From NCBI GenBank assembly GCA_012338575.1, contig GCA_012338575.1_3616.1: a stretch of 64,000 nucleotides of DNA, one strand, 5' to 3'. A program made the translations under genes and the position numbers. This DNA comes from a phage. Positions 1-12,254 of this stretch are shown piece after piece. Position 1 is the first letter of the stretch. Each line of letters opens with the position of its first letter. The notes beneath the pieces are model-generated. The model was not told the DNA's origin and did not search any database. It saw only the letters and a program-made list of their open reading frames with translations.

Positions 1-13
1 AAAAAAAAAATTA

Positions 14-41
14 TTGACACGCTGCAAAATTAAAGTAAACT
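14..41 (+). promoter_or_regulatory. sigma70-like promoter (TTGACA, 16 bp, TAAACT)
   Basis: TTGACA 14-19, TAAACT 36-41; leader hairpin GGCGGGAA-tgtt-TCCCGCC precedes SD of CDS 90-485. Confidence 0.4.
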
Positions 42-89
42 AGACACAAAAGGCGGGAATGTTTCCCGCCAACACAAAGGAAAAAGATC

Positions 90-485
90 ATGAATAAGAA
101 CGTACGCCGCATCATGAACGAACTGGCAAACGATGAAAAAATTATTGATATGCATTTGGTCAACATTTGCCGCCGTTGTGTAACATATAACAACCGCGCC
201 GCAAAAGCGCGTGAGATGAACGCAAAAGGCACCTTAAAGCCCTTTCAGGTGGTTGTAAAATCTATAGCTAATGCAGCAGGCCAGGCGCATGACCACAACA
301 ACGAGAGCACTAATATTGATCCGTCTTACGTAATGAAACGGATCCGGACTTGCAAGAATAAAGAGCAGGTGTATAACGTCATAGATTGGCTGGACTCCAT
401 GGGCGATGTGGTTTATAATAGGTTTTCTGCAGCTATCGAGATCCAGCTTGACAGATTGGACGGGAAAGTACTGAAAACTTACTGA
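90..485 (+). CDS. hypothetical early protein (131 aa)
   Basis: ORF with SD AAGGAAAAAG 5-6 nt upstream of ATG; own promoter. Confidence 0.6.
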   Translation: MNKNVRRIMNELANDEKIIDMHLVNICRRCVTYNNRAAKAREMNAKGTLKPFQVVVKSIANAAGQAHDHNNESTNIDPSYVMKRIRTCKNKEQVYNVIDWLDSMGDVVYNRFSAAIEIQLDRLDGKVLKTY

Positions 486-486
486 G

Positions 487-530
487 TTTATTTTTAGATG
501 GCCTTGACTCCAGGGCCATCAATAAAGTAA
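487..530. repeat. conserved 44-bp intergenic element copy 1 (palindrome GATGGCCTTG-ACTC-CAGGGCCATC carrying TTGACT)
   Basis: Near-identical copies at 1106-1150 and 4861-4905, variant at 1444-1485; 10-bp stem hairpin; no U-tract after hairpin on either strand. Confidence 0.7.
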
Positions 531-564
531 CCTAACCACAGTTGAGCGGAAAGGGGGCTTAAAG

Positions 565-684
565 ATGAGTACTACACGCCAGCACACAAAGGTAACTATT
601 ATCGTTTGCATCATTGGTTACATCCTGGCGCAAATGTTGATGGGTAGCGCCAACGGTATCGCAAAATTTTTCTTAAACTTTTAA
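565..684 (+). CDS. small hydrophobic protein (39 aa, predicted single TM helix)
   Basis: ATG 565 preceded by AAAGGGGG; not in ORF track (below 60 aa); translation MSTTRQHTKVTIIVCIIGYILAQMLMGSANGIAKFFLNF. Confidence 0.4.
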   Translation: MSTTRQHTKVTIIVCIIGYILAQMLMGSANGIAKFFLNF

Positions 685-685
685 T

Positions 686-715
686 TGACAAGCTAACTTA
701 GATCAGTATACTAAC
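686..715 (+). promoter_or_regulatory. sigma70-like promoter (TTGACA ... TATACT)
   Basis: TTGACA 686-691 and TATACT about 17 bp downstream; followed by leader hairpin GGGAAAACTTCCC. Confidence 0.45.
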
Positions 716-762
716 CACATAAACGGGAAAACTTCCCAGAACACACAAAAGGAGAAAACACC

Positions 763-1104
763 ATGACTACTATGACCGCCGCAGATAAAGCTATGCAGAT
801 CGCCGCGCTGAAAAAACAGATCGCAGACCTTGAGAACAAGATCGATAACTTTGAAATCGACGAGGACAAGTACGACGAAAACTATGATGAATGGTTAGAC
901 GAGATCTACGGCGAAATTATGATCGGAAACATTTCTTTTCTTCCGTCGCGTATCCTCAAGGAGCTAGATCCTATCGCTTACCGCTGCGGATTTAGCGACT
1001 ACATCGACAGCCTGGATATTGAGGACGATGAAGAATACCAGGAATTACAGACAGAGTTGGAAGAAGCAAAAGAAGAGCTTGCGGAGCTGGAAGAAAACGA
1101 GTAA
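763..1104 (+). CDS. hypothetical acidic early protein (113 aa)
   Basis: ORF with SD AAAAGGAG; strongly acidic C-terminal half. Confidence 0.6.
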   Translation: MTTMTAADKAMQIAALKKQIADLENKIDNFEIDEDKYDENYDEWLDEIYGEIMIGNISFLPSRILKELDPIAYRCGFSDYIDSLDIEDDEEYQELQTELEEAKEELAELEENE

Positions 1105-1105
1105 G

Positions 1106-1150
1106 ATTATTTTTAGATGGCCTTGACACCAGGGCCATCAATAAAGTAAA
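1106..1150. repeat. conserved 44-bp intergenic element copy 2
   Basis: GATTATTTTTAGATGGCCTTGACACCAGGGCCATCAATAAAGTAAA. Confidence 0.7.
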
Positions 1151-1193
1151 CTTTATACTGTTAACACTGAACTAATGCATAGGAGTTAAAACC

Positions 1194-1439
1194 ATGGCCG
1201 CACTAATTACCAAATATTACGCCCCTACCAACACCAAAAGCGCCCGTATCATGGTAAAAGGCTTCGGACGTAAAAAGGTTTACACCTGGGATTATTCCCT
1301 AGACATGGAAGACAACTACACCAACGCGATGACCGATTTTATTAATGAACTAAATAAGCAGATCTTAACCAATTATAAGGTTACCGACATCGCCTATGTT
1401 GGGGAAGGTGGGATCTGTTTTGTCGGTATTGTCAAATAA
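1194..1439 (+). CDS. hypothetical early protein (81 aa)
   Basis: ORF with SD AGGAG upstream. Confidence 0.55.
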   Translation: MAALITKYYAPTNTKSARIMVKGFGRKKVYTWDYSLDMEDNYTNAMTDFINELNKQILTNYKVTDIAYVGEGGICFVGIVK

Positions 1440-1443
1440 GCTG

Positions 1444-1485
1444 TTTTTTCGGTGGCCCTGGTGGCAGGGCCATCTATAAAGATAG
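1444..1485. repeat. variant copy of intergenic palindromic element (GGCCCTG-gtgg-CAGGGCC)
   Basis: Same architecture (T-run, GC palindrome, ATAAAG) as the 44-bp element but diverged. Confidence 0.5.
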
Positions 1486-1515
1486 TTTATTAACACCATG
1501 AAAGGAGAAAGTAAC

Positions 1516-1869
1516 ATGATCAGCGGGGCTAGTTTTATTATTGGCGCTATTGCTACGGCTTTAATTGTAAACAAGATCCAATCTAAAAACGAGAAAGAGA
1601 GCAACGCGCTCACAGAATACCCATTTTGGGTATTCAACGACAATGAAGACTATATTATCAAGTACAAGGATGAGAAAGGAGACCAGGTAACACCGCGACC
1701 GATCCCGGCTTACAAGATGCAAGAAACACTATACCGCCTAAAGGCTGGAGGCGCAAAAATCGTAGACTTTTGGGGATATGATTGCAAGGATCAGGAGGTT
1801 ATAAAACGGCGTATCCGGGCGATTCAGGCAAATATTGAAGTTAGCAAGGGGGGAATATATGAAGATTAA
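1516..1869 (+). CDS. hypothetical protein with N-terminal hydrophobic segment (117 aa)
   Basis: ATG 1516 follows SD AAAGGAG at correct spacing; track ORF starts 18 nt earlier inside the SD. Confidence 0.55.
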   Translation: MISGASFIIGAIATALIVNKIQSKNEKESNALTEYPFWVFNDNEDYIIKYKDEKGDQVTPRPIPAYKMQETLYRLKAGGAKIVDFWGYDCKDQEVIKRRIRAIQANIEVSKGGIYED

Positions 1870-2056
1870 TTTTGAGAAGATTGTAAAGCGATCTCATGAT
1901 TCCGAGGAGTTGCCGGAACGCCGCCAGCGCAACAATAAACTGAATAAGCCAAAAAGATTTGGGAAGATCTGGCGGAATCATTATGATCGTAAATTGCCGG
2001 GCCTACTTTTGGAACGTGAACGACAAGCGGAACGATACCGCCACAAAGGCAAATAG
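1859..2056 (+). CDS. small basic protein (65 aa)
   Basis: ATG 1859 after GGGGGG; overlaps stop of upstream gene; Arg/Lys-rich. Confidence 0.45.
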   Translation: MKINFEKIVKRSHDSEELPERRQRNNKLNKPKRFGKIWRNHYDRKLPGLLLERERQAERYRHKGK

Positions 2057-2063
2057 CAACCAA

Positions 2064-2090
2064 CGCCCCGCCATTGTGCGGGGTTTTTTA
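2064..2090 (+). terminator. rho-independent terminator
   Basis: CCCCGC-cattgt-GCGGGG followed by TTTTTT. Confidence 0.7.
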
Positions 2091-2238
2091 TTTCTATCCT
2101 ACGAATAGCGCCCCTGGTTGGCCCCACAAACGCCACAAAAGCCCCTACCTATGCAATCCCCTTTATTAACCTGAAAACATCACCCAGGGCCGTTTTATGG
2201 TGTTAAAAAATATCATTGACAGTGATTTTATTTAAAGC

Positions 2239-2267
2239 TTGACACCTTGGAATAGTCCGGATATACT
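2239..2267 (+). promoter_or_regulatory. sigma70-like promoter (TTGACA, 17 bp, TATACT)
   Basis: TTGACA 2239-2244, TATACT 2262-2267. Confidence 0.5.
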
Positions 2268-2302
2268 AACCACATCAAAGCAAGAAGGAAGGAGTAAACG
2301 CC

Positions 2303-2563
2303 ATGCGTAAATTAAAAAATTTTGATAAAGTTGATGTTGTCCTGAATAATTTTTACTACTGCAATAACAAGGCCATTTGGTGGCGTGATAGTTCCACCGA
2401 TAAAGTCAAGGCGCGCTTTCTCCAGGGGCACTGGCAAGGCCGTCCAGTGATTAAAATCATGGGGCAATTGGTAGCGTTTAAAAATTGCCGCCGTGTTGAT
2501 GACGTTGAAGAGATTTTAAGCATTTTGCGCCACAATAATTTAAAAAATAGTGTTGACAAGTAA
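2303..2563 (+). CDS. hypothetical early protein (86 aa)
   Basis: ORF with SD GGAAGGAG. Confidence 0.55.
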   Translation: MRKLKNFDKVDVVLNNFYYCNNKAIWWRDSSTDKVKARFLQGHWQGRPVIKIMGQLVAFKNCRRVDDVEEILSILRHNNLKNSVDK

Positions 2564-2580
2564 ATCTCGATAAGTATACT
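2553..2580 (+). promoter_or_regulatory. sigma70-like promoter (TTGACA, 16 bp, TATACT)
   Basis: TTGACA 2553-2558 overlapping stop of upstream gene; leader hairpin GGCGGGAAAACTTCCCGCC follows. Confidence 0.5.
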
Positions 2581-2637
2581 TAAACACACAGGCGGGAAAA
2601 CTTCCCGCCACTAACAAAGAAAATAGGAGAAAATATC

Positions 2638-3261
2638 ATGACCACCGTTAACATTACCACAGGTTACAATTTATCTTTCGACGTGCTGACCGATGAACAA
2701 AAAGAAAAAGCTATTGAAATGGTCCGCGAAAGAGAAGAACACAGCGGGGATAACTTTTTTGCAGAAAGTGTAATTGAAGACTATAAAGAACATATCTTTC
2801 CAGAGTATGGCCTTGAAGATACCAAGGTACATTGGTCCGGATTTTGGTGCCAGGGTGACGGCGCGTCAATCAGTGCGGGAAACGTGGATTTAGAAAAATT
2901 CTTGCGTAAAGTCAAGTCTCTGACTAAATTCCGCTCAATTCGTCACTTGTTCGGCACAATGCACGATGGCGAACTATCCGCAAGTGTTGAGCGTGATCCA
3001 TATAGCCGCTATAGTCACGAAAACACTGTAAGCGGGTACATCGATACTACATGGCTAGATCTGACCGCCAAACAAGAAAACAAAGTGGAAGACCTGGAAG
3101 AACTGATCACCGAGACGGTACGGGAGCTATCCCGCAAGGTTTACGTAGACCTGGAGGAGGCCTATCTAGAACAGTTCACTACCGAAAACCTGATCGGCCT
3201 TATTGAGGCCAATGATTGGCGGTTTGATGTGGATGAATATGGAGAGATGAGTTTTTCATAA
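2638..3261 (+). CDS. hypothetical early protein (207 aa)
   Basis: ORF with SD ATAGGAGAAAA; largest early ORF, acidic. Confidence 0.6.
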   Translation: MTTVNITTGYNLSFDVLTDEQKEKAIEMVREREEHSGDNFFAESVIEDYKEHIFPEYGLEDTKVHWSGFWCQGDGASISAGNVDLEKFLRKVKSLTKFRSIRHLFGTMHDGELSASVERDPYSRYSHENTVSGYIDTTWLDLTAKQENKVEDLEELITETVRELSRKVYVDLEEAYLEQFTTENLIGLIEANDWRFDVDEYGEMSFS

Positions 3262-3269
3262 ATAAAGTG

Positions 3270-3297
3270 TTGCAATAATCTAAAAACCTGCTATATT
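3270..3297 (+). promoter_or_regulatory. sigma70-like promoter (TTGCAA ... TATATT)
   Basis: TTGCAA 3270-3275, TATATT about 16 bp downstream; leader hairpin GGGGGCAA-gacg-TTTGCCCC. Confidence 0.4.
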
Positions 3298-3351
3298 AAA
3301 ACTCAAGGGGGGCAAGACGTTTGCCCCACACAAAACAAAGAGGAAAACATT

Positions 3352-3732
3352 ATGAAAAACACTACTAAAGCTATTGACACCGTTATGTTTAACCTGGTTA
3401 CCTTTCGCGAGGATATGAAAGATCTTCCACGTGAAACAGTGTGCGATCACATTGAAAACTATCGCAAACTAATCAAAGAGTTGCCTTTAAAACGTGACCA
3501 GTATGCGGCTAACGCTATGCTCAACGCCATGATCAAAAAGATGATTCAGTGTGATTTAACCCTGGCCTATGATTATGCAGGTGGTCGTTTTGCAGTATAC
3601 AATCAGCCCGTGCCTGGTATGGGCACCACTGAAGAATTGCACGCGCTCAATCTAAAACAAGACGTGTGGGATAGTATGCCCCGCGTGGTGGTGTGGGCAG
3701 AAAGCGGAAAGATTTACGGCGATAATTTTTAA
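3352..3732 (+). CDS. hypothetical early protein (126 aa)
   Basis: ORF with SD AAGAGGAAAA. Confidence 0.55.
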   Translation: MKNTTKAIDTVMFNLVTFREDMKDLPRETVCDHIENYRKLIKELPLKRDQYAANAMLNAMIKKMIQCDLTLAYDYAGGRFAVYNQPVPGMGTTEELHALNLKQDVWDSMPRVVVWAESGKIYGDNF

Positions 3733-3742
3733 TCAGGTAACA

Positions 3743-3768
3743 GGCGGCATATTTGCCGCCTTATTGTT
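3743..3768 (+). terminator. rho-independent terminator
   Basis: GGCGGC-atattt-GCCGCC then TTATTGTT. Confidence 0.55.
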
Positions 3769-3796
3769 AAACAGAACTGCAAAAGAGGTACATAGA

Positions 3797-4168
3797 ATGG
3801 AATTTATTATTTTGGCCGTATTAGTTGCCTTGTTTAACGCCTGGATCGCTGGCAAGATGGGTAGATCCGCCTTTTTATGGTTTATTATATCTATTTTCCT
3901 GGGGGTGGTTGCAACTATTGTACTTGTTATCCTTGCAATTGTTGACAAAGGCGATAATAGAAAGGGTAAAGTATTTTCCGACCTGTATGACGCGCAAACA
4001 TTTGTCAACGCCTATTATAGTGATCTTCCAGTCTCCCTACGCTGCAGCCTTGCACAACAGGTTTTCGATGAAGCTAAAACCAGAGATCACGCCCATGAGA
4101 TTTGTTTAACTGAGGCGGATCGCCTATTTGAGAGGAATAGAAAATATGTGGGCCAGCCGTTTAAATAA
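3797..4168 (+). CDS. membrane protein (two predicted TM helices at N-terminus)
   Basis: ATG 3797 after AAAGAGG; MEFIILAVLVALFNAWIAG... hydrophobic. Confidence 0.5.
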   Translation: MEFIILAVLVALFNAWIAGKMGRSAFLWFIISIFLGVVATIVLVILAIVDKGDNRKGKVFSDLYDAQTFVNAYYSDLPVSLRCSLAQQVFDEAKTRDHAHEICLTEADRLFERNRKYVGQPFK

Positions 4169-4391
4169 TACCACGTTAATTAATCCCTTTGATGAAGATT
4201 TGAAGCCAGCCGCCTGGCGTGATGGATTCAATAACGAACGCTTTATTTTCAGGCCTGATCTTAAGGAATTTTGTAACAATGGATCGAACAACGACAGAGA
4301 TAATTTTTCTTGTGATGTGCGTGGTGATGGTACTCCTGGGGGCCATTGTAAACCACGTCACTACTACCAGGATGAAAGGGGGAGACGATGA
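4146..4391 (+). CDS. hypothetical protein (about 82 aa)
   Basis: ATG 4146 after GAGAGGAA; overlaps upstream stop. Confidence 0.4.
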   Translation: MWASRLNNTTLINPFDEDLKPAAWRDGFNNERFIFRPDLKEFCNNGSNNDRDNFSCDVRGDGTPGGHCKPRHYYQDERGRR

Positions 4392-4507
4392 CAACCAAGG
4401 ATAAGCCCCGCACCGATAAGGTGCGCCGGGTTATGGTATGGCTTGAGATCATCGCCCTTGAAATATTGTTAGGCGTAGGGATGTATTTTATCGCTGTAAG
4501 TAACTGA
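4388..4507 (+). CDS. small membrane protein (39 aa)
   Basis: ATG 4388 after GGGGGAGACG, ATGA-type overlap with upstream gene; not in ORF track. Confidence 0.4.
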   Translation: MTTKDKPRTDKVRRVMVWLEIIALEILLGVGMYFIAVSN

Positions 4508-4648
4508 TAACGGCCCCCGATCCCTGGGGTCCTAACTTTTTCAAAAAATTTTTCTTCCGGGGTGTTGCAATCCGGTCCGAAATATGGATAATAATAATCA
4601 ACGGGGAGCTAATCCCCACCAACACAAAAACCAGAAAGGAGAAACAAA

Positions 4649-4849
4649 ATGAGCAACAATATCCGCGTTATTAACTTCAAAAAAGAAGAAAAAATTGCCG
4701 TGCTGATTGACGGTCAAGAAATCTTCAAGGGCTATTATGAAGATCATCAAACTGCGATTAGTATCACTCGCGTGATCGGTTACCATAATTTCTACCCCCA
4801 AGGCGCTGAGGCAGCAGTAAAACGAATCAAAGAGATTGTAGGCCTGTAA
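4649..4849 (+). CDS. hypothetical early protein (66 aa)
   Basis: SD AGAAAGGAG; preceded by promoter-like TTGCAA..ATATGGATAATAA and leader hairpin GGGGAGCTAATCCCC. Confidence 0.55.
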   Translation: MSNNIRVINFKKEEKIAVLIDGQEIFKGYYEDHQTAISITRVIGYHNFYPQGAEAAVKRIKEIVGL

Positions 4850-4860
4850 AATTTATTTTT

Positions 4861-4905
4861 AGATGGCCTTGACTCCAGGGCCATCAATAAAGTAAATTTA
4901 AACCC
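4861..4905. repeat. conserved 44-bp intergenic element copy 4
   Basis: TTTATTTTTAGATGGCCTTGACTCCAGGGCCATCAATAAAGTAAA. Confidence 0.7.
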
Positions 4906-4942
4906 TGTTAAAATACCACGCAGTTAACAAGGAGTGATAGAC

Positions 4943-5242
4943 ATGTTTATCCAGGCTAATAATCTTTATTTCTTTGATGGTCAGATCGTAGATGGTGTGG
5001 AAGTGGAGATCACCGGGTGCCCTGGCGGTCAGGCTATGACTTTTCGGAATAATGCCTTTAATGATTCTCATATCGTTATGAGAATGGAAGTTACGAAGCT
5101 GGATGACAAGAAAACACTTATTGACTATTCTGTGAAAGATCATCCAGACTACCACATGATCTATGGTGATTTGTGCATTGTTGACCGTGACAAGGTGAGC
5201 GGCATTGTGATCGCTATTGTGAACGATGTTTTCTCAAACTAA
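4943..5242 (+). CDS. hypothetical early protein (99 aa)
   Basis: ATG 4943 after AAGGAG. Confidence 0.55.
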   Translation: MFIQANNLYFFDGQIVDGVEVEITGCPGGQAMTFRNNAFNDSHIVMRMEVTKLDDKKTLIDYSVKDHPDYHMIYGDLCIVDRDKVSGIVIAIVNDVFSN

Positions 5243-5259
5243 TTTCAACAGGTGATTTT

Positions 5260-5610
5260 ATGAAAGTTAAATTATATTACCTTAATGAGCTTAACCCCCT
5301 TGCCCAGGTCCGCGCCCTAGCTAATACCTTGATTTGTGAGAAATCTGTATATTGTGTTGAGCTTAACGCTATGCGTGAACGTCTCAAAGGTGGTTACTTT
5401 AATATCCATGCTGCAATCAACGGCCTGAATATGGAATTTATCCGTTTACGTAACAGCCGCCGGAATCTGGCAAGAATGGAACAAGATCCGGCCCACCTTC
5501 GTAAGCTGGTTATTGAAAATCATCTGATGTTTAATGCCGAGGGTGATTATTACCATTTTCACCGCAAACGCTGGTACCGTGGCGGCAATACAGGCAAGAA
5601 TGCAAAATAA
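5260..5610 (+). CDS. hypothetical early protein (116 aa)
   Basis: ORF with SD AGGTGA. Confidence 0.5.
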   Translation: MKVKLYYLNELNPLAQVRALANTLICEKSVYCVELNAMRERLKGGYFNIHAAINGLNMEFIRLRNSRRNLARMEQDPAHLRKLVIENHLMFNAEGDYYHFHRKRWYRGGNTGKNAK

Positions 5611-5646
5611 GGCCCCAGGCAGGGCCTACAGCGACCTAAACACTAG

Positions 5647-5680
5647 CAGGCTATGCAATCGCATAGCCTTTATTGTTTTG
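5647..5680 (+). terminator. rho-independent terminator
   Basis: AGGCTATGC-aatc-GCATAGCCT followed by TTTATTGTTTT. Confidence 0.7.
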
Positions 5681-5811
5681 ACGTTACAACGGCCCTAGGG
5701 CGCTTAAAAAATTTTTAAAGAAGTACTTGCATCATTCCCGACAATATGGATAATAAGAGTTGTCGAGGGGGAGGCCTCCAATCATTGACCAGATAGATAG
5801 GAGTTAAAATC

Positions 5812-6096
5812 ATGGCTATTGTTACCGCTGGCGATGTAGTAGAAATGGAAGCAAAATACTTAAAAGCGGGTATGCATATCCTACGGAATGATCAAGAGTT
5901 ATTATTAACGATGGTTGACTATAATCACGGCCAGGATTATCCAAGCATCGACTACTTTTTTGAGTATGTTGATGAAGAGTTGAAAGAGGATGAGGCCTAT
6001 TGCGGTGAGTTCTGCAACTTCTTTTGTCCTGATGAGGTTGTAAAGGTTATTTATCAACCTGGCGTAGCTTTCCCGCTGCACGCTATCAATAAATAA
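5812..6096 (+). CDS. hypothetical early protein (94 aa)
   Basis: SD ATAGGAG; upstream promoter-like TTGCAT..ATATGGATAATAA. Confidence 0.55.
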   Translation: MAIVTAGDVVEMEAKYLKAGMHILRNDQELLLTMVDYNHGQDYPSIDYFFEYVDEELKEDEAYCGEFCNFFCPDEVVKVIYQPGVAFPLHAINK

Positions 6097-6160
6097 ACCT
6101 GGCGGGGCCGAAAAGGCCCCTACAGCATAAAATTATGAAAATAAAGAGAGGTAAATCATC

Positions 6161-6394
6161 ATGATGGAACAAATTAAACGCACCGAGGCTATTAATGGCA
6201 ATGTGATCTATTTTGTTAGCAAAAACGAAAAAGGCGTACCATATGCGGCGGTAATAGTACAACCTGACGGCGATTATTGGTTTACTGTGTACGGCGCTTA
6301 TTCTTTTGGGCGTCCAGTGCATGATAAAATTTTGAAAGTAGCGAACCCTACCGGGAAGAATATCACAGCAGAAAAATTTTTTGAAAATAGTTGA
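6161..6394 (+). CDS. hypothetical early protein (77 aa)
   Basis: SD AAAGAGAGG. Confidence 0.55.
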   Translation: MMEQIKRTEAINGNVIYFVSKNEKGVPYAAVIVQPDGDYWFTVYGAYSFGRPVHDKILKVANPTGKNITAEKFFENS

Positions 6395-6469
6395 CATGAC
6401 CATATAAGACTGTAATATATAAATCAGAGGGGGCAACGAACCCCACCAACTACAAAGAGGATAAAAATC

Positions 6470-6649
6470 ATGGCTATTATTGCAAAGACTGAGATCGTAG
6501 GCTTAGATTCTATTCTCCTCGCATATGAGGAAGCTATAGAAATGTATGTGGTTTCCTATGGTGAGTATATCCGTGAATATAAATCTATTGATCTGGCTTT
6601 TGAATGTTATATCCGCCAGGTTAATAAAGCGTACGATGATTATCGTTAA
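6470..6649 (+). CDS. small protein (59 aa)
   Basis: ATG 6470 after ACAAAGAGGATAAAAATC; own promoter TTGACA..TAATAT; below track threshold. Confidence 0.45.
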   Translation: MAIIAKTEIVGLDSILLAYEEAIEMYVVSYGEYIREYKSIDLAFECYIRQVNKAYDDYR

Positions 6650-6735
6650 AATAGTTTGACAACAGCCATCTTACAAAGCATAATACATAAGGCGGTGGAA
6701 TGGTCCGCCACCTGGAACAAAGAGAGGTAAAAATC

Positions 6736-7011
6736 ATGGCTATCATCGAAAAAGTAAACGTTCCGACTACTTACAATAAAGGCTATAACGGCTATAAAAA
6801 CTATAATCAGTGGAACGTTGCACTGTGGATCAATAACGACGAAAGTTTATACTTCTTTGCCCTGGGCCTGATTAATGAGTGTGGCAATAAAGACGCGGCA
6901 GCTGATTTGATGGTTTACCGCTTGAAAGAAGATGGGATCACTCATACGCCTGATGGGGTGCCTTACAATAAAACTAACATCCGCGCCGCTATGGTTGGAA
7001 TGCCTCACTAA
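6736..7011 (+). CDS. hypothetical early protein (91 aa)
   Basis: ATG 6736 after AGAGAGG; promoter TTGACA 6655-6660 with CATAAT. Confidence 0.55.
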   Translation: MAIIEKVNVPTTYNKGYNGYKNYNQWNVALWINNDESLYFFALGLINECGNKDAAADLMVYRLKEDGITHTPDGVPYNKTNIRAAMVGMPH

Positions 7012-7081
7012 TAGCCGCCTTACCCTGGGGCTGTGGTAGCGGCCCCATGAATAAGGTTACTAACAGAAGAGAATAAACACC

Positions 7082-7186
7082 ATGAAACAGAAATTAATCG
7101 ATGCAGTGATCTTGGTTATTGCCCTGGGTATTGGCCTGATTGCAACCATGTCTAATATGATCTTGTCTTCCAACGGTATCGGGTGA
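7082..7186 (+). CDS. small membrane protein (34 aa)
   Basis: Hydrophobic mini-ORF MKQKLIDAVILVIALGIGLIATMSNMILSSNGIG; weak SD; speculative. Confidence 0.3.
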   Translation: MKQKLIDAVILVIALGIGLIATMSNMILSSNGIG

Positions 7187-7195
7187 GGTTGGCAA

Positions 7196-7411
7196 ATGAT
7201 CACTAACAAAACAGGCAAAACAGAATTTTTACGCAACTTACAGATCGGCAAGCCTGAGATCTGGTACTGCACTAAAACACCGCGTGACGAAATGAAAGAC
7301 TTCACCGCCACGCTGCAACGGGTAAAGATATCTATCACGCAGAAAAAGGCCTTACTAGTGGTGGAAGGGGAGATCCCCCAAACCGTTGTTATAGTTGAGC
7401 GTACCGCATAG
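7196..7411 (+). CDS. hypothetical protein (71 aa)
   Basis: ORF with SD GGTGAGG. Confidence 0.45.
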   Translation: MITNKTGKTEFLRNLQIGKPEIWYCTKTPRDEMKDFTATLQRVKISITQKKALLVVEGEIPQTVVIVERTA

Positions 7412-7502
7412 TTTAATTTATACCGATACCCGAAAATTAACCAACAAATCATAAACAGGCGGTTACCGCCGCCTTAAACGTAGCAGAAAGAGGATAGACA
7501 CA

Positions 7503-7793
7503 ATGAAAAAGATGATCGCAGTGGTTGCCCTGGTTGTTGGACTTAGTGCGCCTGCAATGGCTAATGAGCTGGCAAAAGAGGTTAATCTAACGGATATTCA
7601 TGCCGTCAATCGAATCGGGGTTACTTATCGCTTATGCCTTGCCACTAAAACTTTTAATGACGGTACAACAGAGTACTACGGATTCGAGGGTATCCGGTGC
7701 GGTGAACTTGCTCGCGACCTTAAGGAAGATCCAGACCTGGAAGATTTGCCGATGACGGTAAACGGTAAAGCTTACGTAAACCGCCAACAATAA
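7503..7793 (+). CDS. secreted/periplasmic protein with signal peptide (96 aa)
   Basis: N-terminus MKKMIAVVALVVGLSAPAMA is a classic signal peptide with AxA cleavage motif; SD AGAGGA. Confidence 0.6.
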   Translation: MKKMIAVVALVVGLSAPAMANELAKEVNLTDIHAVNRIGVTYRLCLATKTFNDGTTEYYGFEGIRCGELARDLKEDPDLEDLPMTVNGKAYVNRQQ

Positions 7794-7809
7794 GTAAGGG
7801 CGATGTAAA

Positions 7810-8001
7810 ATGAATACTGAACAAGTTAGAAAGGTATTGGCGGTACTGCGTTATCATAATCATAAAAAGGTGATAGACGATCCTGATTATGTAGATTCAA
7901 GCCTGGAAGAAGACACGCTACAAGCTATAGGCCATATGCAAGAATTGCTTAAACGCATGACAGAGAAAAACCGACCGGACTACATAGGGGGTAAAATATG
8001 A
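7810..8001 (+). CDS. hypothetical protein (63 aa)
   Basis: ORF with SD AAGGG. Confidence 0.45.
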   Translation: MNTEQVRKVLAVLRYHNHKKVIDDPDYVDSSLEEDTLQAIGHMQELLKRMTEKNRPDYIGGKI

Positions 8002-8309
8002 TCGCTATTACGCCAACCGTTTTAGATTGGTATCGGCAACGCATAGCGCCTCCACTGGCTATCTTCAAAGATGCGGAAGCAAAACAACGCCGGATCTCAA
8101 TACATGAGATCATCAACCTTAACGCTGGAGGCACACCATACCGCCCAGGGCCTGGCCGTGAGATGGACAATACATTGGCGATCCTGAAGATACGCCGTAA
8201 ACGGTCCTCCCTTACGCTGGATTCATTACACACAATGCAGTCTCCGTTCCAGGTGACTGGGAAACGGATCGCCAGGTCCTGGACAAAGGCCAATGACCGG
8301 ACCGTATAA
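7998..8309 (+). CDS. hypothetical protein (103 aa)
   Basis: ATGA overlap with upstream gene; SD GGGGG. Confidence 0.45.
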   Translation: MIAITPTVLDWYRQRIAPPLAIFKDAEAKQRRISIHEIINLNAGGTPYRPGPGREMDNTLAILKIRRKRSSLTLDSLHTMQSPFQVTGKRIARSWTKANDRTV

Positions 8310-8527
8310 ATAAAAAGTGTTTTGGTACTGATTTTGGGGTTGACTTGTTCGGCCCCTTTTGCTATTCTTATTAAACGGGCGGCACTTGGGAACAGGGGGA
8401 GACAATCACCAGGCCTGCCTGTCATATAAGAACTATAAAAACCGTTGACATCTGCCAGGGGGTGGGGTAACATTTATCTTGAAGGGGCAAAGGTGCCCAC
8501 ACAACAACCAGAAGAGAGGAAAACACT

Positions 8528-8800
8528 ATGTCAAGCTGGATTAATCAAGAAGTCGAATCACGTTTTAATGCTATTTGGGATCTCATCGAAAAAGAAGACG
8601 GCACATCAAGCCCCTACCTCAACAATTTGGAATTCCATTTTGTGGAAGCGATGAACGCAGAACATGATCACGAAGGTGGTGCGGACGAGTTCGCTAAAGG
8701 GTATGGCTTCAACAATGCCAACGAAATGATCGAGGCGGTTGTACTCCAGGCTGAGGAAGATTATCAATTAAAAACGCTTGAATTCTGCCGCCGTAAGTAA
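8528..8800 (+). CDS. hypothetical acidic protein (90 aa)
   Basis: SD AGAGAGGAAAA; two upstream TTGAC(T/A) promoters. Confidence 0.55.
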   Translation: MSSWINQEVESRFNAIWDLIEKEDGTSSPYLNNLEFHFVEAMNAEHDHEGGADEFAKGYGFNNANEMIEAVVLQAEEDYQLKTLEFCRRK

Positions 8801-8860
8801 TAAGATAATGACACGGGCCGGGAGGCCCACTAATCAGAACCACACAAAGAGGTAAACATC

Positions 8861-9124
8861 ATGAAACGTCTTGATCAGCTTAAACTAGTTCAGTACATGG
8901 CCTACAAAGTTCTTGAAGTCCAAAAAGGTAGCAAAAAAGAGGTTTGCGAGAAAGCATATAAGATCTTTACCCGTAAAAAAGATGATTGGATGTTACGCCA
9001 GACCAAAAAAGCCGATATCCTGGGATACCTGGAAGAAGAGATCCGACTTGAAGAACAAGAAGAGATCCGCCGTAGTGAGGCAGATTATCAGGCAGCTTGG
9101 GAAAACTGGATGAGCAACAAATAA
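8861..9124 (+). CDS. hypothetical protein (87 aa)
   Basis: SD AAAGAGGTAAA; leader hairpin GGGCCGGGAGGCCC. Confidence 0.55.
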   Translation: MKRLDQLKLVQYMAYKVLEVQKGSKKEVCEKAYKIFTRKKDDWMLRQTKKADILGYLEEEIRLEEQEEIRRSEADYQAAWENWMSNK

Positions 9125-9190
9125 TACAACAAGTTACATGGTCAGGGGCAATAAAGCCCCTTGATCGCATAAAAATTATGCTATCCTTGG

Positions 9191-9219
9191 TTGACAAGGA
9201 TCGGCAGTTTTGCTATATT
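9191..9219 (+). promoter_or_regulatory. sigma70-like promoter (TTGACA, 17 bp, TATATT)
   Basis: TTGACA 9191-9196, TATATT 9214-9219. Confidence 0.55.
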
Positions 9220-9267
9220 CTTTTTGAAGGGAAGTTGTAAGAAAATTAACTAAGAGGTAAAAACACC

Positions 9268-9687
9268 ATGAACATTAAATCTAATAATCCGGCATATAGC
9301 TTTGATAACGCTTTTTGTCACGGTCCGGCGGCGAAAGGATTCGAAATCGATGGTAAACTAATTATTGTCAATGTTGACGGGGAAGAGGTTGCAGTATATC
9401 CGGTGGCAGACGTAAAAAGCCGTTTACAATGCCGCATTGATGTTACCGCCTATCAGCTTGATCCGGTCCGCATAGTTGCCCTGGTCTTGGAAGAAGAAAT
9501 TAAAGCCATGCACCATAGCAACAGATTTATTGGTGACGCGCAGGATAATATGAAAGTATGCCGCCATAAAGTTAATGAAGTGCTTAAAGAGTACGGCTAT
9601 AAAGATCTTATGATCAAACGTGAGGAAAAATTCCGCTACCGTAACGACCTGGCAAATCGAATCTATGAAATATACGAATCATTATAA
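9268..9687 (+). CDS. hypothetical protein (139 aa)
   Basis: SD AAGAGGTAAAA. Confidence 0.55.
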   Translation: MNIKSNNPAYSFDNAFCHGPAAKGFEIDGKLIIVNVDGEEVAVYPVADVKSRLQCRIDVTAYQLDPVRIVALVLEEEIKAMHHSNRFIGDAQDNMKVCRHKVNEVLKEYGYKDLMIKREEKFRYRNDLANRIYEIYESL

Positions 9688-9705
9688 TTTCTTAACTAAA
9701 CTATC

Positions 9706-9733
9706 AGGGGCTTTAAAAGGCCCCTTTCTTTTT
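9706..9733 (+). terminator. rho-independent terminator ending the rightward early block
   Basis: AGGGGC-tttaaaag-GCCCCT followed by TTCTTTTT. Confidence 0.65.
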
Positions 9734-10329
9734 GTCTGTATTTCTCCTACCACAAACGGCCCAGCCTGGCAAGTGGAATAATTGACTAGCCATCAATCCC
9801 ACACACTGTACAAATATACATGGAAAATAACTATTGCATAATTTTTCATTGTGTGGTAGCAAGTCCATTTTTACCCGTTTTCTCTCTCAAAATTGCACGT
9901 AATGCCGCTATTGCACAAAATTTAACCTGATGCACATCTTCAATATCTTGTCAACAACTAAAAATCTTTATAAGTCATACACTTACACACTCACAAAAGC
10001 GTGTTCTACGTGAAAAATCGAGTATAACTATAGCCGCCAGATCTCAGAATTTACGTACGCTCACCATTCTATAGTCTGCTAAGTATTTATTCCAACCATG
10101 GAATAACGGAATAGTCAATACCTGCATAAAATAATTATTCGTGTAAACTGCATAACATAAATCAGCTTATGTGTCAACATTCTTGGTAAACAGTCCGAAA
10201 TTGTAACGGTAAGTTATAATAAACAGAGAAATCTTTAGTCGTCTAATGTTTACTGTACATAACTATACTGACTGGAATCATTAGATGACTAAGAGAAAGA
10301 TAAGAAATAATTAACAATACAATTATTTT

Positions 10330-10520
10330 ATCTGTAACAATAAGGCAACTATGCAAACGAATATTATGGCGCGACGGAGTCGCGACATAATATAAAAGCA
10401 GTAACCATCACCCCCGTGATAGTTTGTCTGCAATCTATTAATCAGATCATAGTTGCCTTGTATTCAGTTAATCATGACATAACAAGCAAGGCAACTATAG
10501 ATCTGCTAATAGTTGCCCTG
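10330..10520. repeat. four copies of 12-bp motif ATAGTTGCC(T/C)TG in alternating orientation
   Basis: aaggcaactatg (10334), atagttgccttg (10451), caaggcaactat (10489), atagttgccctg (10509). Confidence 0.6.
10362..10392. repeat. 31-bp near-perfect palindrome
   Basis: TATTATGGCGCGAC-gga-GTCGCGACATAATA. Confidence 0.6.
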
Positions 10521-11359
10521 CTTTTATATTATGTCATAGGAACGCCCGAAGGGGTGACCTAGTCACCTGGCATAGCCAGCGAAAGATTATTAACTTGTTA
10601 ATTGTTAACTTGCTAATTGTTTTCATGCAAACGAATGTCATGGCTTATCCTATCTGTGTAAACAGTTAAGGTGTAAACTATCCAGGCGTAAACAGTCTAT
10701 GCGGGAACAATCTATACGTGAACAGTGAAACATGAAATAATAACAGTCGTTATTGTGTCGAAAGTGTATAAGGTGTATAAGGTGTCAGACAAGTTTTTCT
10801 CCTCTTTGTCAAGTGCTGCATGAAAATTTACAAACTGGTATGGTAGCATTTTTGCGGCCCTGTTTACATTCAGCGATGTATGTATAACCCTTGTTGTGTG
10901 GGCGTTTAGACGTCTGGACGGTCAGAAGTCCGCAGGTTAATATCTAATCTATTGGCTGCTAACTATATCCCACACAAATAGTAAGAAATATAATTGTTAT
11001 GTGCGTAAACGGTAACTCATGTTATCAATCCCTGTATGTATCGCCAGTGGTGCGCATAATGGGTATTATGTTAAATTGCCCGTAATGATAACTATTCTCA
11101 CAATGATAGGTATTCTCATTCAACCACATCAGATAGCTTGCAAATGTTGTGCCACTGTGTGAACGGCCTCGCCTATTAATTTGCCTCACTACCTCGATAT
11201 TTGAGAATTGTTATAAGAATGAGAAGTATTCCCATTCCGTCCGCCTGGCAGCACTCCTGTAGGTCCTGCAAGGACTCTAGCTGAAAGCTAGACCCTTCGG
11301 GCCTCCCTGTAGGTCAGGTCAAAATCGGGGTAGAACTGGGCCTATTTAGATATTTCTGG

Positions 11360-11505
11360 CTGGCTCTTCAGACATGTGTGGGAAAAGCCGACCCCTCCGG
11401 CGGCGGGGAGGGGGTCAATTAAAAAATTTACGTGGTGTATGAAGCGCTCTTCAGGTAAGGCATGTATTATGGGATGAAACCCTCTTCAGGTAAGGATATT
11501 TGTGG
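11360..11505. repeat. repeated CTCTTCAGG(TAAGG) motif cluster with GC hairpins
   Basis: ctcttcagac (11367), ctcttcaggtaagg (11447, 11487), more copies at 11883 and 12543; hairpin GACCCCTCC-ggcggc-GGGGAGGGGGTC. Confidence 0.5.
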
Positions 11506-12254
11506 GTGTGATATTTGCTGGAAAGCCAGATATGACGGGACTCCCGGCGGGGCAGGGGTAGTACAGACAGGGAAAATATGGGGGATGTAGTTGGGTGAAT
11601 TGATCAGACAGGTAGGGTATGGAATATGTTACAAGTATGTTAAATATGGAGGTCGAATATCTGTAGGATTTGTGTGTAAAATCAAAGACTTAAGTGGTGT
11701 TGTGGTATTTTCTATAAATAATTCAAGTTTAATAGGTAATATTTGCCTCTATCCACTTTGTGTGGTAAACAGATTCAGATGAGATTGGTTTACAAGTGTA
11801 TACATAATATACAAATTAAAGATACAAGAAACCCCCCTCCCCCTTCGGCTACCATTCACCTTTTCCTCTGACTGGTACTTAAACACTTATTCAGACTCTT
11901 CAGGTTATCACCCATATATCATATGGCAGTGACTGGTGTCCTCCGGCCCCTCTTTCGTCACCCGTCCGCTTCGCCATGCTAATGCCATAGCCAATGGTTC
12001 GGTTGTTCACCCTGTTCACTCAGGTGTATCTCCATACCCCTTCAAACCGAAGAGAACAGAAAACCCGAATTACTCGGTAAAAGAAAAGAGAAGAACTTAA
12101 TTTTATCAGGATAGGCAAGAATGTCAAGGCATGACTGCTCACTAAACAAGCAAACAGTCATGTGTGGGAGGTAAGTGATTGTGGTGGTAGGAAATTTAGT
12201 TGAAAGATGTGTTATAGGTGCTTCCAGCACTTTAGCCGGGCAGCTAATTGTGTG

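Follow-up and report, generated by a model that had tools for sequence, protein, structure and literature searches.

Promoter-early stem-loops (PeSLs), described by Arbiol et al. and Comeau et al. for the T4-like phages RB49/phi1, PST/T4 and nt-1/KVP40, combine a consensus sigma70 promoter and its AT-rich tract with a polyG/polyC stem-loop and a Shine-Dalgarno sequence (SD) with ATG; clustered among ORFans, they bring about the shuffling of modules and the formation of mini-circles, and their stem-loop has been read as a terminator or attenuator (PMC2839356, PMC4122927). Stem-loops at the 5' terminus of the message, on the other hand, are known as stabilisers of ompA and papA (Emory, Bouvet & Belasco 1992, cited in PMC3997798). 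The elements considered here, repeated promoter–hairpin–leader cassettes termed class A in the following, share traits with both. They lie at positions 1-9700 of a 64,000-nucleotide stretch of phage DNA (the window; NCBI GenBank assembly GCA_012338575.1, contig GCA_012338575.1_3616.1) and are best filed as a variant of the PeSL kind, in a lineage for which no earlier report was found, distinguished by a hairpin which keeps a fixed distance to the promoter and, lying past the predicted start, is transcribed.

The window represents an rV5-like coliphage (Vequintavirus) with phage inoa as best match (96.6% identity), and about 60 Vequintavirus (rV5-like) coliphages match bases 1-10000 at 93-97% identity. 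Positions 1-9700 constitute the far (distal) end of a long early unit, which is oriented leftward in related genomes and extends there from a divergent promoter region via rIIA/B, helicase and DNA polymerase to about 50 small hypothetical genes. In the window, 27 plus-strand genes are located between 90 and 9687 and closed by a strong terminator at 9706-9725. For rV5, the early region has been described as one unit under sigma70-type promoters, with 33 promoters and 20 terminators listed and no mention of leader hairpins (PMC3606486).

Layout of the class A cassettes

Class A cassettes are built in one order, namely an A/T-rich tract, a -35 box TTGACA or TTGCAA, 16-17 nt, a -10 box TAnnnT, a gap of 9-12 nt, the hairpin, a leader, an AGAGG or GGAG SD and ATG, with the SD and the start codon of the next gene forming the 3' end. 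Eight strong cassettes have their -35 box at 14, 685, 2553, 3270, 4565, 6391, 6656 and 8445, and a ninth possesses a weak promoter, a common layout which bears out the stereotyped, modular early cassette of the preliminary description, although only about nine of the 27 genes carry one.

14-89, plus strand: class A cassette of gene 90-485; -35 TTGACA 14-19, -10 TAAACT 36-41, hairpin GGCGGGAAtgtTTCCCGCC 52-70, CA leader and SD 71-89; fold z -4.26
685-762, plus strand: class A cassette of gene 763-1104; -35 685-690, -10 TATACT 707-712, hairpin GGGAAaacTTCCC 725-737, leader 738-762; z -2.14
2553-2637, plus strand: class A cassette of gene 2638-3261; -35 2553-2558, -10 TATACT 2575-2580, hairpin GGCGGGAAaacTTCCCGCC 2591-2609; z -4.52
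3270-3351, plus strand: class A cassette of gene 3352-3732; TTGCAA 3270-3275, TGcTATATT with -10 at 3292-3297, hairpin GGGGCAAgacgtTTGCCCC 3309-3327; z -3.02
4565-4648, plus strand: class A cassette of gene 4649-4849; TTGCAA 4565-4570, GATAAT 4587-4592, hairpin GGGGAgctaaTCCCC 4603-4617; z -2.72
6391-6469, plus strand: class A cassette of gene 6470-6649; TTGACA 6391-6396, TAATAT 6413-6418, hairpin GGGGgcaacgaaCCCC 6429-6444; z -1.88
6656-6735, plus strand: class A cassette of gene 6736-7011; TTGACA 6656-6661, CATAAT 6679-6684, hairpin 6691-6712 with a U.G pair
8445-8527, plus strand: class A cassette of gene 8528-8800; TTGACA 8445-8450, TAACAT 8468-8473, hairpin GGGCAaaggTGCCC 8485-8498
8778-8860, plus strand: ninth cassette, with weak promoter, of gene 8861-9124; TTGAAT 8778-8783, 17 nt, TAAGAT 8801-8806, hairpin GGGCCgggaGGCCC 8815-8828, CA leader 8829-8860; z -2.55

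The promoters, preceded by A/T runs, score 9-11 out of 12. In all eight strong cassettes the GC core of the hairpin follows the -10 box at a distance of 9-12 nt, with a mode of 10, and 19-31 nt of A/C-rich leader with AGAGG or GGAG separate the hairpin end from the ATG. The G-run/C-run hairpins of the eight regions are 13-19 nt long, class A free energies range from -5 to -15 kcal/mol, and the 8 nt after each hairpin contain 0-2 T, so that there is no U-tract. Where the gap measures 10-11 nt, the transcription start is predicted at a CA or TG dinucleotide 7-8 nt past the -10 box, 2-5 nt ahead of the hairpin.

With a background of 92 comparable GC hairpins per 64 kb of the plus strand, about 0.06 promoter–hairpin pairs are expected by chance, and the occurrence of a hairpin starting 9-11 nt after the -10 box at six or more of 13 promoters has a chance probability of about 1e-11. 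The predicted fold of nine leaders out of ten is a lone 5'-proximal hairpin which leaves SD and AUG open (z = -1.2 to -4.5); in the tenth, 5769-5814, the hairpin does not form. A search of 1-12000 with the Rfam 15 covariance models at a permissive threshold gave only two sub-threshold chance hits.

The five hairpins listed in the preliminary description are all present (52-70, 2591-2609, 3307-3327, 4603-4617 and 8815-8828), the one at 3309-3327 differing in G/C-run length among relatives. The CA-rich spacer it noted is likewise real, as the sequence between hairpin and SD is composed of 47% A, 36% C, 8.5% G and 8.5% T, whereas 101 other leaders from the same window contain 31% A, 19.5% C, 18% G and 31% T (depletion of T, p = 2e-10). 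The AGAGG ribosome site is also found in the cassettes, but the exact ACAAAGAGG, which had been counted among the early features, is the general ribosome-binding flavour of this phage and precedes minus-strand genes elsewhere too.

Early promoters do not carry a leader hairpin as a rule. In phage inoa, a leader hairpin follows seven of the 13 strong promoters in the distal ~10.7 kb versus one of the 22 located upstream (Fisher p = 0.0017), and class A is therefore a local cassette family.

Selection, distribution and recombination joints

Each cassette was aligned across 9-10 Vequintavirus genomes and the mean pairwise difference per site was determined for its parts. Hairpin stems show 0.027 differences per site, loops 0.122 and third codon positions, as synonymous sites, 0.078 (stem < loop, p = 1e-4; stem < third codon position, p = 0.012), and the corresponding values are 0.006 for the -35 box, 0.030 for the -10 box, 0.072 for the promoter spacer and 0.067 for the CA leader. 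By this comparison the stems are under purifying selection and the hairpin is selected as a structure. Changes among orthologues comprise a swap restricted to the loop at 8820 (GGGA to AAAA), a C-to-U exchange by which pairing persists as G.U, the rebuilding of one stem from GGGGAGctaatCCCC to GGGGAGacaCTCCCC and slippage in G/C-run length. The orthologue set stayed at 9-10 genomes, as a scan of IMG/VR with a 21-nt anchor for further Vequintavirus orthologues gave one contig only.

Paralogues were compared over 59 distinct cassettes from 16 loci, among which the modal gap between -10 box and hairpin is again 10. The stems vary in sequence yet always pair, invariably with the G-rich arm 5' (316 G vs 97 C). 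Conserved pairing, free loops and unlike paralogous stem sequences together fit a function which depends on pairing and is independent of sequence. The sense strand folds better than the antisense strand in 29 vs 14 hairpins (p = 0.04), with 21 G.U pairs, an asymmetry which points weakly to a function in the sense RNA. RNAalifold on a MAFFT sequence alignment of 27 paralogous hairpins was uninformative, since stem and loop lengths differ and the hairpins were not structurally aligned; folds of individual sequences and the constraint among orthologues were therefore used instead.

The class A layout recurs in Stephanstirmvirinae, namely in the phi92-like phages Eryne and muut and the phAPEC8-like phage tuntematon (Justusliebigvirus, Phapecoctavirus), as well as in the Pectobacterium phage DU_PP_IV (Certrevirus), which in addition has promoters whose hairpin lies in the spacer or around the -10 box. 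In tuntematon, tatcACATAGGGCGG is conserved after the -10 box, as it is between paralogous cassettes of Stephanstirmvirinae. The palindrome GGCGGGAA..TTCCCGCC occurs in IMG/VR viral contigs mostly as an unrelated T-tailed terminator (70 of 252 strand instances) and is promoter-linked in seven instances only, which derive from four contigs with rV5/phi92-like cassette sequences. The sequence comparisons thereby present the cassette layout as a lineage trait spread over two phage subfamilies.

The window was compared by BLAST with eight relatives for breakpoints, and the junction sequences were then inspected. Breakpoints recur at cassettes (6664, 6731/7065, 8864/8829 and 9131-9162/9702), with cassette 6656-6735 as a recurrent mosaic breakpoint (6664, 6731), where the matches at 6664 end inside a -35 box. 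Gene 6736 and the element after it form an insertion whose ends exactly adjoin a leader on one side and the following ATG on the other (6731/7065). Gotham, rV5 and naswa possess an extra gene between two copies of the leader 'actaatca.aac..cca.a.aaagagg' (window 8829-8864). In Gotham and ECML-10, gene 9268-9687 has been lost together with its promoter by a deletion between two GGGGC hairpins (9144-9160 and 9706-9725), which leaves a hybrid hairpin whose 5' arm stems from the 9144 hairpin and whose 3' arm and tail come from the 9706 terminator. The 5244/5600 indel, by contrast, is not flanked by cassettes; its joints lie near two stop codons, and gene 5260-5610 is missing in rV5, Gotham, navn, ECML-10 and RudolfGeigy.

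Exchange extends beyond the genus. Genes 6161 and 6470, from SD to stop codon (6158-6387 and 6451-6651), are 90-93% identical to Justusliebigvirus (muut, ESCO32, Eryne), although the window and Justusliebigvirus genomes otherwise share about 2% of the region at the DNA level, which points to a recent transfer of gene modules between subfamilies. In phage naswa, a block of cassettes and genes is 87-90% identical to muut. Judged from these junctions, the cassettes serve as joints for the insertion, deletion and replacement of genes, a role which, together with the relation to PeSLs, the preliminary description had missed.

Possible functions of the transcribed hairpin

The reading which we tentatively prefer, at somewhat less than an even chance, is that class A cassettes are self-contained 'plug-and-play' units for early genes, a PeSL variant in which a 5'-proximal hairpin acts in the sense RNA as a protective and insulating structure. 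From the host sigma70 promoter, the RNA would start at the CA or TG dinucleotide, 7-8 nt beyond the -10 box, and the hairpin would begin at about +3 to +5, where it would limit the 5'-end-dependent attack of RppH and RNase E on primary transcripts, likewise shield fragments cut from read-through RNA and sequester its own C-run from pairing with the ribosome site. RNase E sites require U, and the U-poor, A/C-rich leader would offer RNase E no sites and leave the ribosome site open. As it would work for any downstream gene and is present in many copies, the cassette may enable short-homology recombination to shuffle small accessory genes. A 5'-terminal stem-loop blocks RppH (PMC8833179), and the role of a 5' mRNA stabiliser, which the preliminary description had assigned to the hairpin, is the best-supported function, although unproven: the position downstream of the predicted start, the selected stems and the U-poor leader agree with it, whereas the borderline length of the 5' overhang, the copies without promoter and the hairpins located within promoters elsewhere do not.

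These and further points weigh against the stabilising role. From promoter geometry, the predicted unpaired 5' end is 0 nt long in cassette 6656 and 2-5 nt long in the other seven strong ones, while RppH and RNase E accept at least two unpaired 5' nucleotides and prefer at least three (PMC8833179), and with an overhang of 2-5 nt the protection would therefore be borderline at most. RNase E scanning is hardly impeded by a simple internal stem-loop (PMC11194081). Modules of hairpin and leader occur without promoters at 3742, 6104 and 7457, with three more in phage tuntematon, and in Certrevirus and RB49 hairpins lie in the promoter spacer or around the -10 box and hence not fully in their own transcript, which is why a 5' stabiliser cannot be the whole story. 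Promoters of the same early unit further upstream have no leader hairpin, with the one exception among 22 in inoa, and the hairpin is therefore unneeded for early expression in general; its presence may partly reflect the common descent of a local cassette family. A few stem-breaking changes occur among the orthologues, and the strand-asymmetry test is weak. The literature searched contained no 5'-end, 3'-end or half-life data for rV5-like phages, and a search for start-site or RNA-seq work on Vequintavirinae yielded one paper that mentions them, with its RNA-seq performed on a T5-like phage.

Among the alternatives, the one that survives best, although we consider it unlikely, follows the interpretation given to PeSLs, with the hairpin acting on RNA from upstream, either by attenuating or terminating read-through or as a barrier to 3' exonucleases, while the cassette's own promoter sets the dose and the position after the start is incidental. 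Class A, the promoterless modules and a longer, -35-embedding intergenic element described below (class B) all have a single GC hairpin located past the stop codon of the upstream gene and ahead of the next ribosome site, hairpins inside promoters as in RB49 and Certrevirus form fully only in read-through RNA, and one RB49 stem-loop cut downstream lacZ expression as strongly as rrnB T1 (PMC2839356). Class A hairpins, however, lack the U-tract which genuine terminators of the same region possess, a working terminator at +4 to +22 would kill the transcripts of its own promoter, and the distance to the -10 box is far more tightly fixed than such a model needs. Gene 3797, moreover, is situated behind a hairpin and has no promoter of its own, and this hairpin must be read through.

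An explanation confined to the DNA, according to which the hairpin belongs to a selfish or frozen cassette family and has no RNA function, with GC palindromes aiding template switching or short-homology recombination, appears distinctly improbable. The fixed spacing would here follow from common descent, homogenisation between copies and clearance of the promoter melting region. Such an origin accords with the restriction of class A to one ~10.7 kb stretch of small accessory genes, the deletion joints inside hairpins and leaders, the retention of tatcACATAGGGCGG between paralogous cassettes of Stephanstirmvirinae and the mini-circle crossovers at the RB49 stem-loop (PMC2839356). It is at odds with stems which are about threefold better conserved than synonymous sites, as the loops are not, indicating selection for pairing and not mere descent; G.U pairs favour the sense strand as well, and paralogous stems differ widely but always pair.

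Slightly more doubtful still is a factor-binding site at +4 to +22, in RNA or as a DNA palindrome, for a repressor of early promoters or as a nut/put-like element. The fixed position relative to the promoter would be in line with it, as would recurring families (GGCGGGAA/TTCCCGCC and GGGCGGCA-ATGG-TGCCGCC) and the conserved 'ACRTAGGGCGG' with an AAT(G/A)G apex in Stephanstirmvirinae, but Vequintavirus loops evolve at least as fast as neutral sites, stems are unlike between cassettes (GGGGAG.., GGGCC.., GGGGCAA..), the copies per genome are many, in contrast to nut or put sites, and Rfam gave no match. Least probable, and quite remote in our estimate, is a dedicated cis element at +4 which marks the early transcripts of the rV5/phi92 supergroup and is recognised by RNA polymerase or by a factor of phage or host. 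It might modify the polymerase in a put/nut-like manner or license early mRNAs to be stable or translated, and the exact 10-nt spacing would be accounted for, as would the 'ACRTAGGGCGG...AAT(G/A)G' conserved in Stephanstirmvirinae and Certrevirus.

Further assignments were rejected. Class A hairpins are not terminators, as they have no U-tract and stand after the start site, where a terminator at +4 to +22 would abort the transcripts of its own promoter. The terminator scan recovered genuine terminators with T-runs at 2065, 5648 and 9706, listed 52-70, 2591-2609, 3309-3327 and 6430-6444 on the minus strand only and found one lower-ranked, weaker plus-strand stem overlapping the 8485-8498 hairpin. 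With stems of 4-9 bp, class A hairpins are too short for RNase III. A hairpin promoter of the N4 type was dismissed in view of the full sigma70 promoter upstream and because no phage RNA polymerase is mentioned in the rV5 paper, and on the same grounds the resemblance of CACATAGGG to T7-type promoters was judged a coincidence.

Read on the minus strand, the hairpins 52-70, 2591-2609, 3309-3327 and 6430-6444 precede T/G-rich tracts and score as terminator-like; as a side effect, these four class A hairpins might halt antisense transcripts that enter from convergent minus-strand genes.

Other elements of the region and comparison with known systems

Besides class A, the region contains incomplete versions of the cassette, single hairpins and the terminator of the early unit.

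2239-2302, plus strand: strong promoter and leader, hairpin-free, of gene 2303-2563; TTGACA-17-TATACT
3742-3796, plus strand: promoterless hairpin AGGCGGCAtattTGCCGCCT (partial T tail) and leader of gene 3797-4168
5727-5811, plus strand: degenerate cassette of gene 5812-6096; TTGCAT-16-GATAAT, GGGGGAGGCCTCC 5767-5779, no CA leader
6104-6160, plus strand: promoterless hairpin GGGGCCgaaaaGGCCCC 6104-6120 and leader AAAGAGAGGT of gene 6161-6394
7457-7502, plus strand: promoterless hairpin AGGCGGttaCCGCCgCCT 7457-7474 and leader of gene 7503-7793
9144-9160, plus strand: hairpin GGGGCaataaaGCCCC; deletion joint with the terminator hairpin 9706-9725
9191-9267, plus strand: strong promoter and leader without GC hairpin, of gene 9268-9687; TTGACA-17-TGcTATATT
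9706-9725, plus strand: terminal intrinsic terminator of the early unit; AGGGGCtttaaaaGGCCCCT and TTCTTTTT

The degenerate cassette at 5727-5811 was rejected as a member of the family, as there is no stable hairpin at 5767-5779 (z = +0.20). An equivalent of the hairpin at 7457-7474 exists in phage tuntematon.

Class B is a different, longer intergenic element found in five regions (488-530, 1107-1149 and 4853-4895, with variants at 1441-1485 and 7017-7057), the core GATGGCCTTGACNCCAGGGCCATCAATAAAGTAA being present in three exact copies. It folds into a hairpin of about 17 bp (z = -4.0, or -2.8 for the variant at 7017) with an AU lower stem, an internal loop and a GC upper stem, the loop holding a -35-like TTGACN box, and the lower stem co-varies between copies (UUAUUUU/AAAGUAA vs GCCUUA/UAAGGU). 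The record of phage Murica labels two class B elements as terminators, although the T-run sits on the wrong side. Class B may serve for RNase III processing or else be a promoter of PeSL type with a hairpin embedded in it.

Within 8340-8444, a good promoter (TTGACT-17-TGcTATTCT) is followed by about 70 nt free of open reading frames (ORFs) up to the next promoter, and GGGCGGCACTTGGGAACAGGGGGAGACAATCACC in this stretch is conserved in the Stephanstirmvirinae phages tuntematon and muut; its folding is unremarkable (z = -1.6) and it gave no Rfam hit, and the stretch is a candidate small RNA. On the minus strand, 18410-18353 shows a layout similar to class A, with TTGACA-17-TATCAT, 8 nt, hairpin AAGAGGGTTTGGTTCCCTCTT and AAGGAAC...ATG. 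Beyond the terminator, 9726-11590 (~1.9 kb) is devoid of any ORF of at least 60 amino acids and corresponds to a 'non-coding' box on the rV5 map (PMC3606486). It holds an 18-nt perfect inverted repeat with copies 116 nt apart (10384-10401 / 10518-10535) and other short repeats, the equivalent stretch is annotated as repeat_region in related records, and it may be an origin or packaging site. The product of gene 8528-8800 corresponds to ORF167 of rV5, for which the rV5 record notes likeness to a protein of RB49, the phage where PeSLs were defined, and has by tblastn distant homologues (33-52%) in unrelated coliphages and in Salmonella and Citrobacter phages. Among database records, 23 unannotated 'Campylobacter phage' entries (MG065635, MG065658, MG065659, MG065672 and others) are 93-95% identical to this region of an Escherichia coli phage, probably due to a wrong host label or contamination.

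With the class A cassettes, the PeSL idea is extended past T4-like phages to another large group of therapeutic coliphages (rV5-, phi92- and phAPEC8-like), in which compact promoter–hairpin–ribosome-site cassettes would serve to express accessory early genes and at the same time permit their exchange, in a distinct, tightly spaced version with the hairpin as part of the message. If hairpin and U-poor leader indeed stabilise and insulate early mRNAs, the cassette would offer synthetic biology and phage engineering a natural expression part that works irrespective of context. It also provides a concrete system to address how near to the 5' end a hairpin must be for mRNA protection. Annotation would gain as well, since related genomes mark promoters only or mislabel neighbouring hairpin elements as terminators.

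Compared with the known systems, five PeSL traits recur in the window. All parts from the AT-rich tract to the ATG are contained within about 75-90 bp, a near-consensus sigma70 promoter is combined with a G-run/C-run stem-loop and SD/ATG, the cassettes are present in many copies among small accessory ORFs of hypothetical function, and the indels and replacements of close relatives join inside cassettes, even inside the hairpin. It is the hairpin position that differs. The class A hairpin does not lie within or upstream of the promoter, as only class B embeds a -35 box, whereas in RB49 (50 kb scanned) promoter-associated hairpins are found mostly in the spacer or around the -10 box, with leaders that are CA-rich too; Certrevirus, of the same subfamily as the window phage, has RB49-style hairpins in the promoter spacer. 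About 10 nt past the -10 box, the hairpin is transcribed and has no U-tract, and a terminator role is implausible there. The lineage differs as well, with the cassettes in Vequintavirinae/Stephanstirmvirinae and PeSLs reported, in the literature searched, from T4-like phages only.

With the ompA and papA stabilisers, class A shares a sequence-independent GC hairpin near the predicted 5' end, an unstructured leader and a strong ribosome site. It departs from them in the predicted 2-5 nt overhang of most cassettes, at or beyond the protective limit (PMC8833179), and in that the element is repeated as a module, also without promoter.

Small accessory genes with their own promoter, inserted between genes and horizontally exchanged, are also the hallmark by which the cassettes resemble lambdoid morons. 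Morons are promoter–gene–terminator units with the terminator after the gene, whereas in the window the hairpin follows the promoter and has no U-tract, and the units stand in tandem within an early operon. In the early region of T7, RNase III sites and intergenic hairpins shape individual stable mRNAs; intergenic hairpins between early genes are common to both phages, but class A stems measure 4-9 bp, and only the 17-bp class B element (488-530 and its copies) is of RNase III size.

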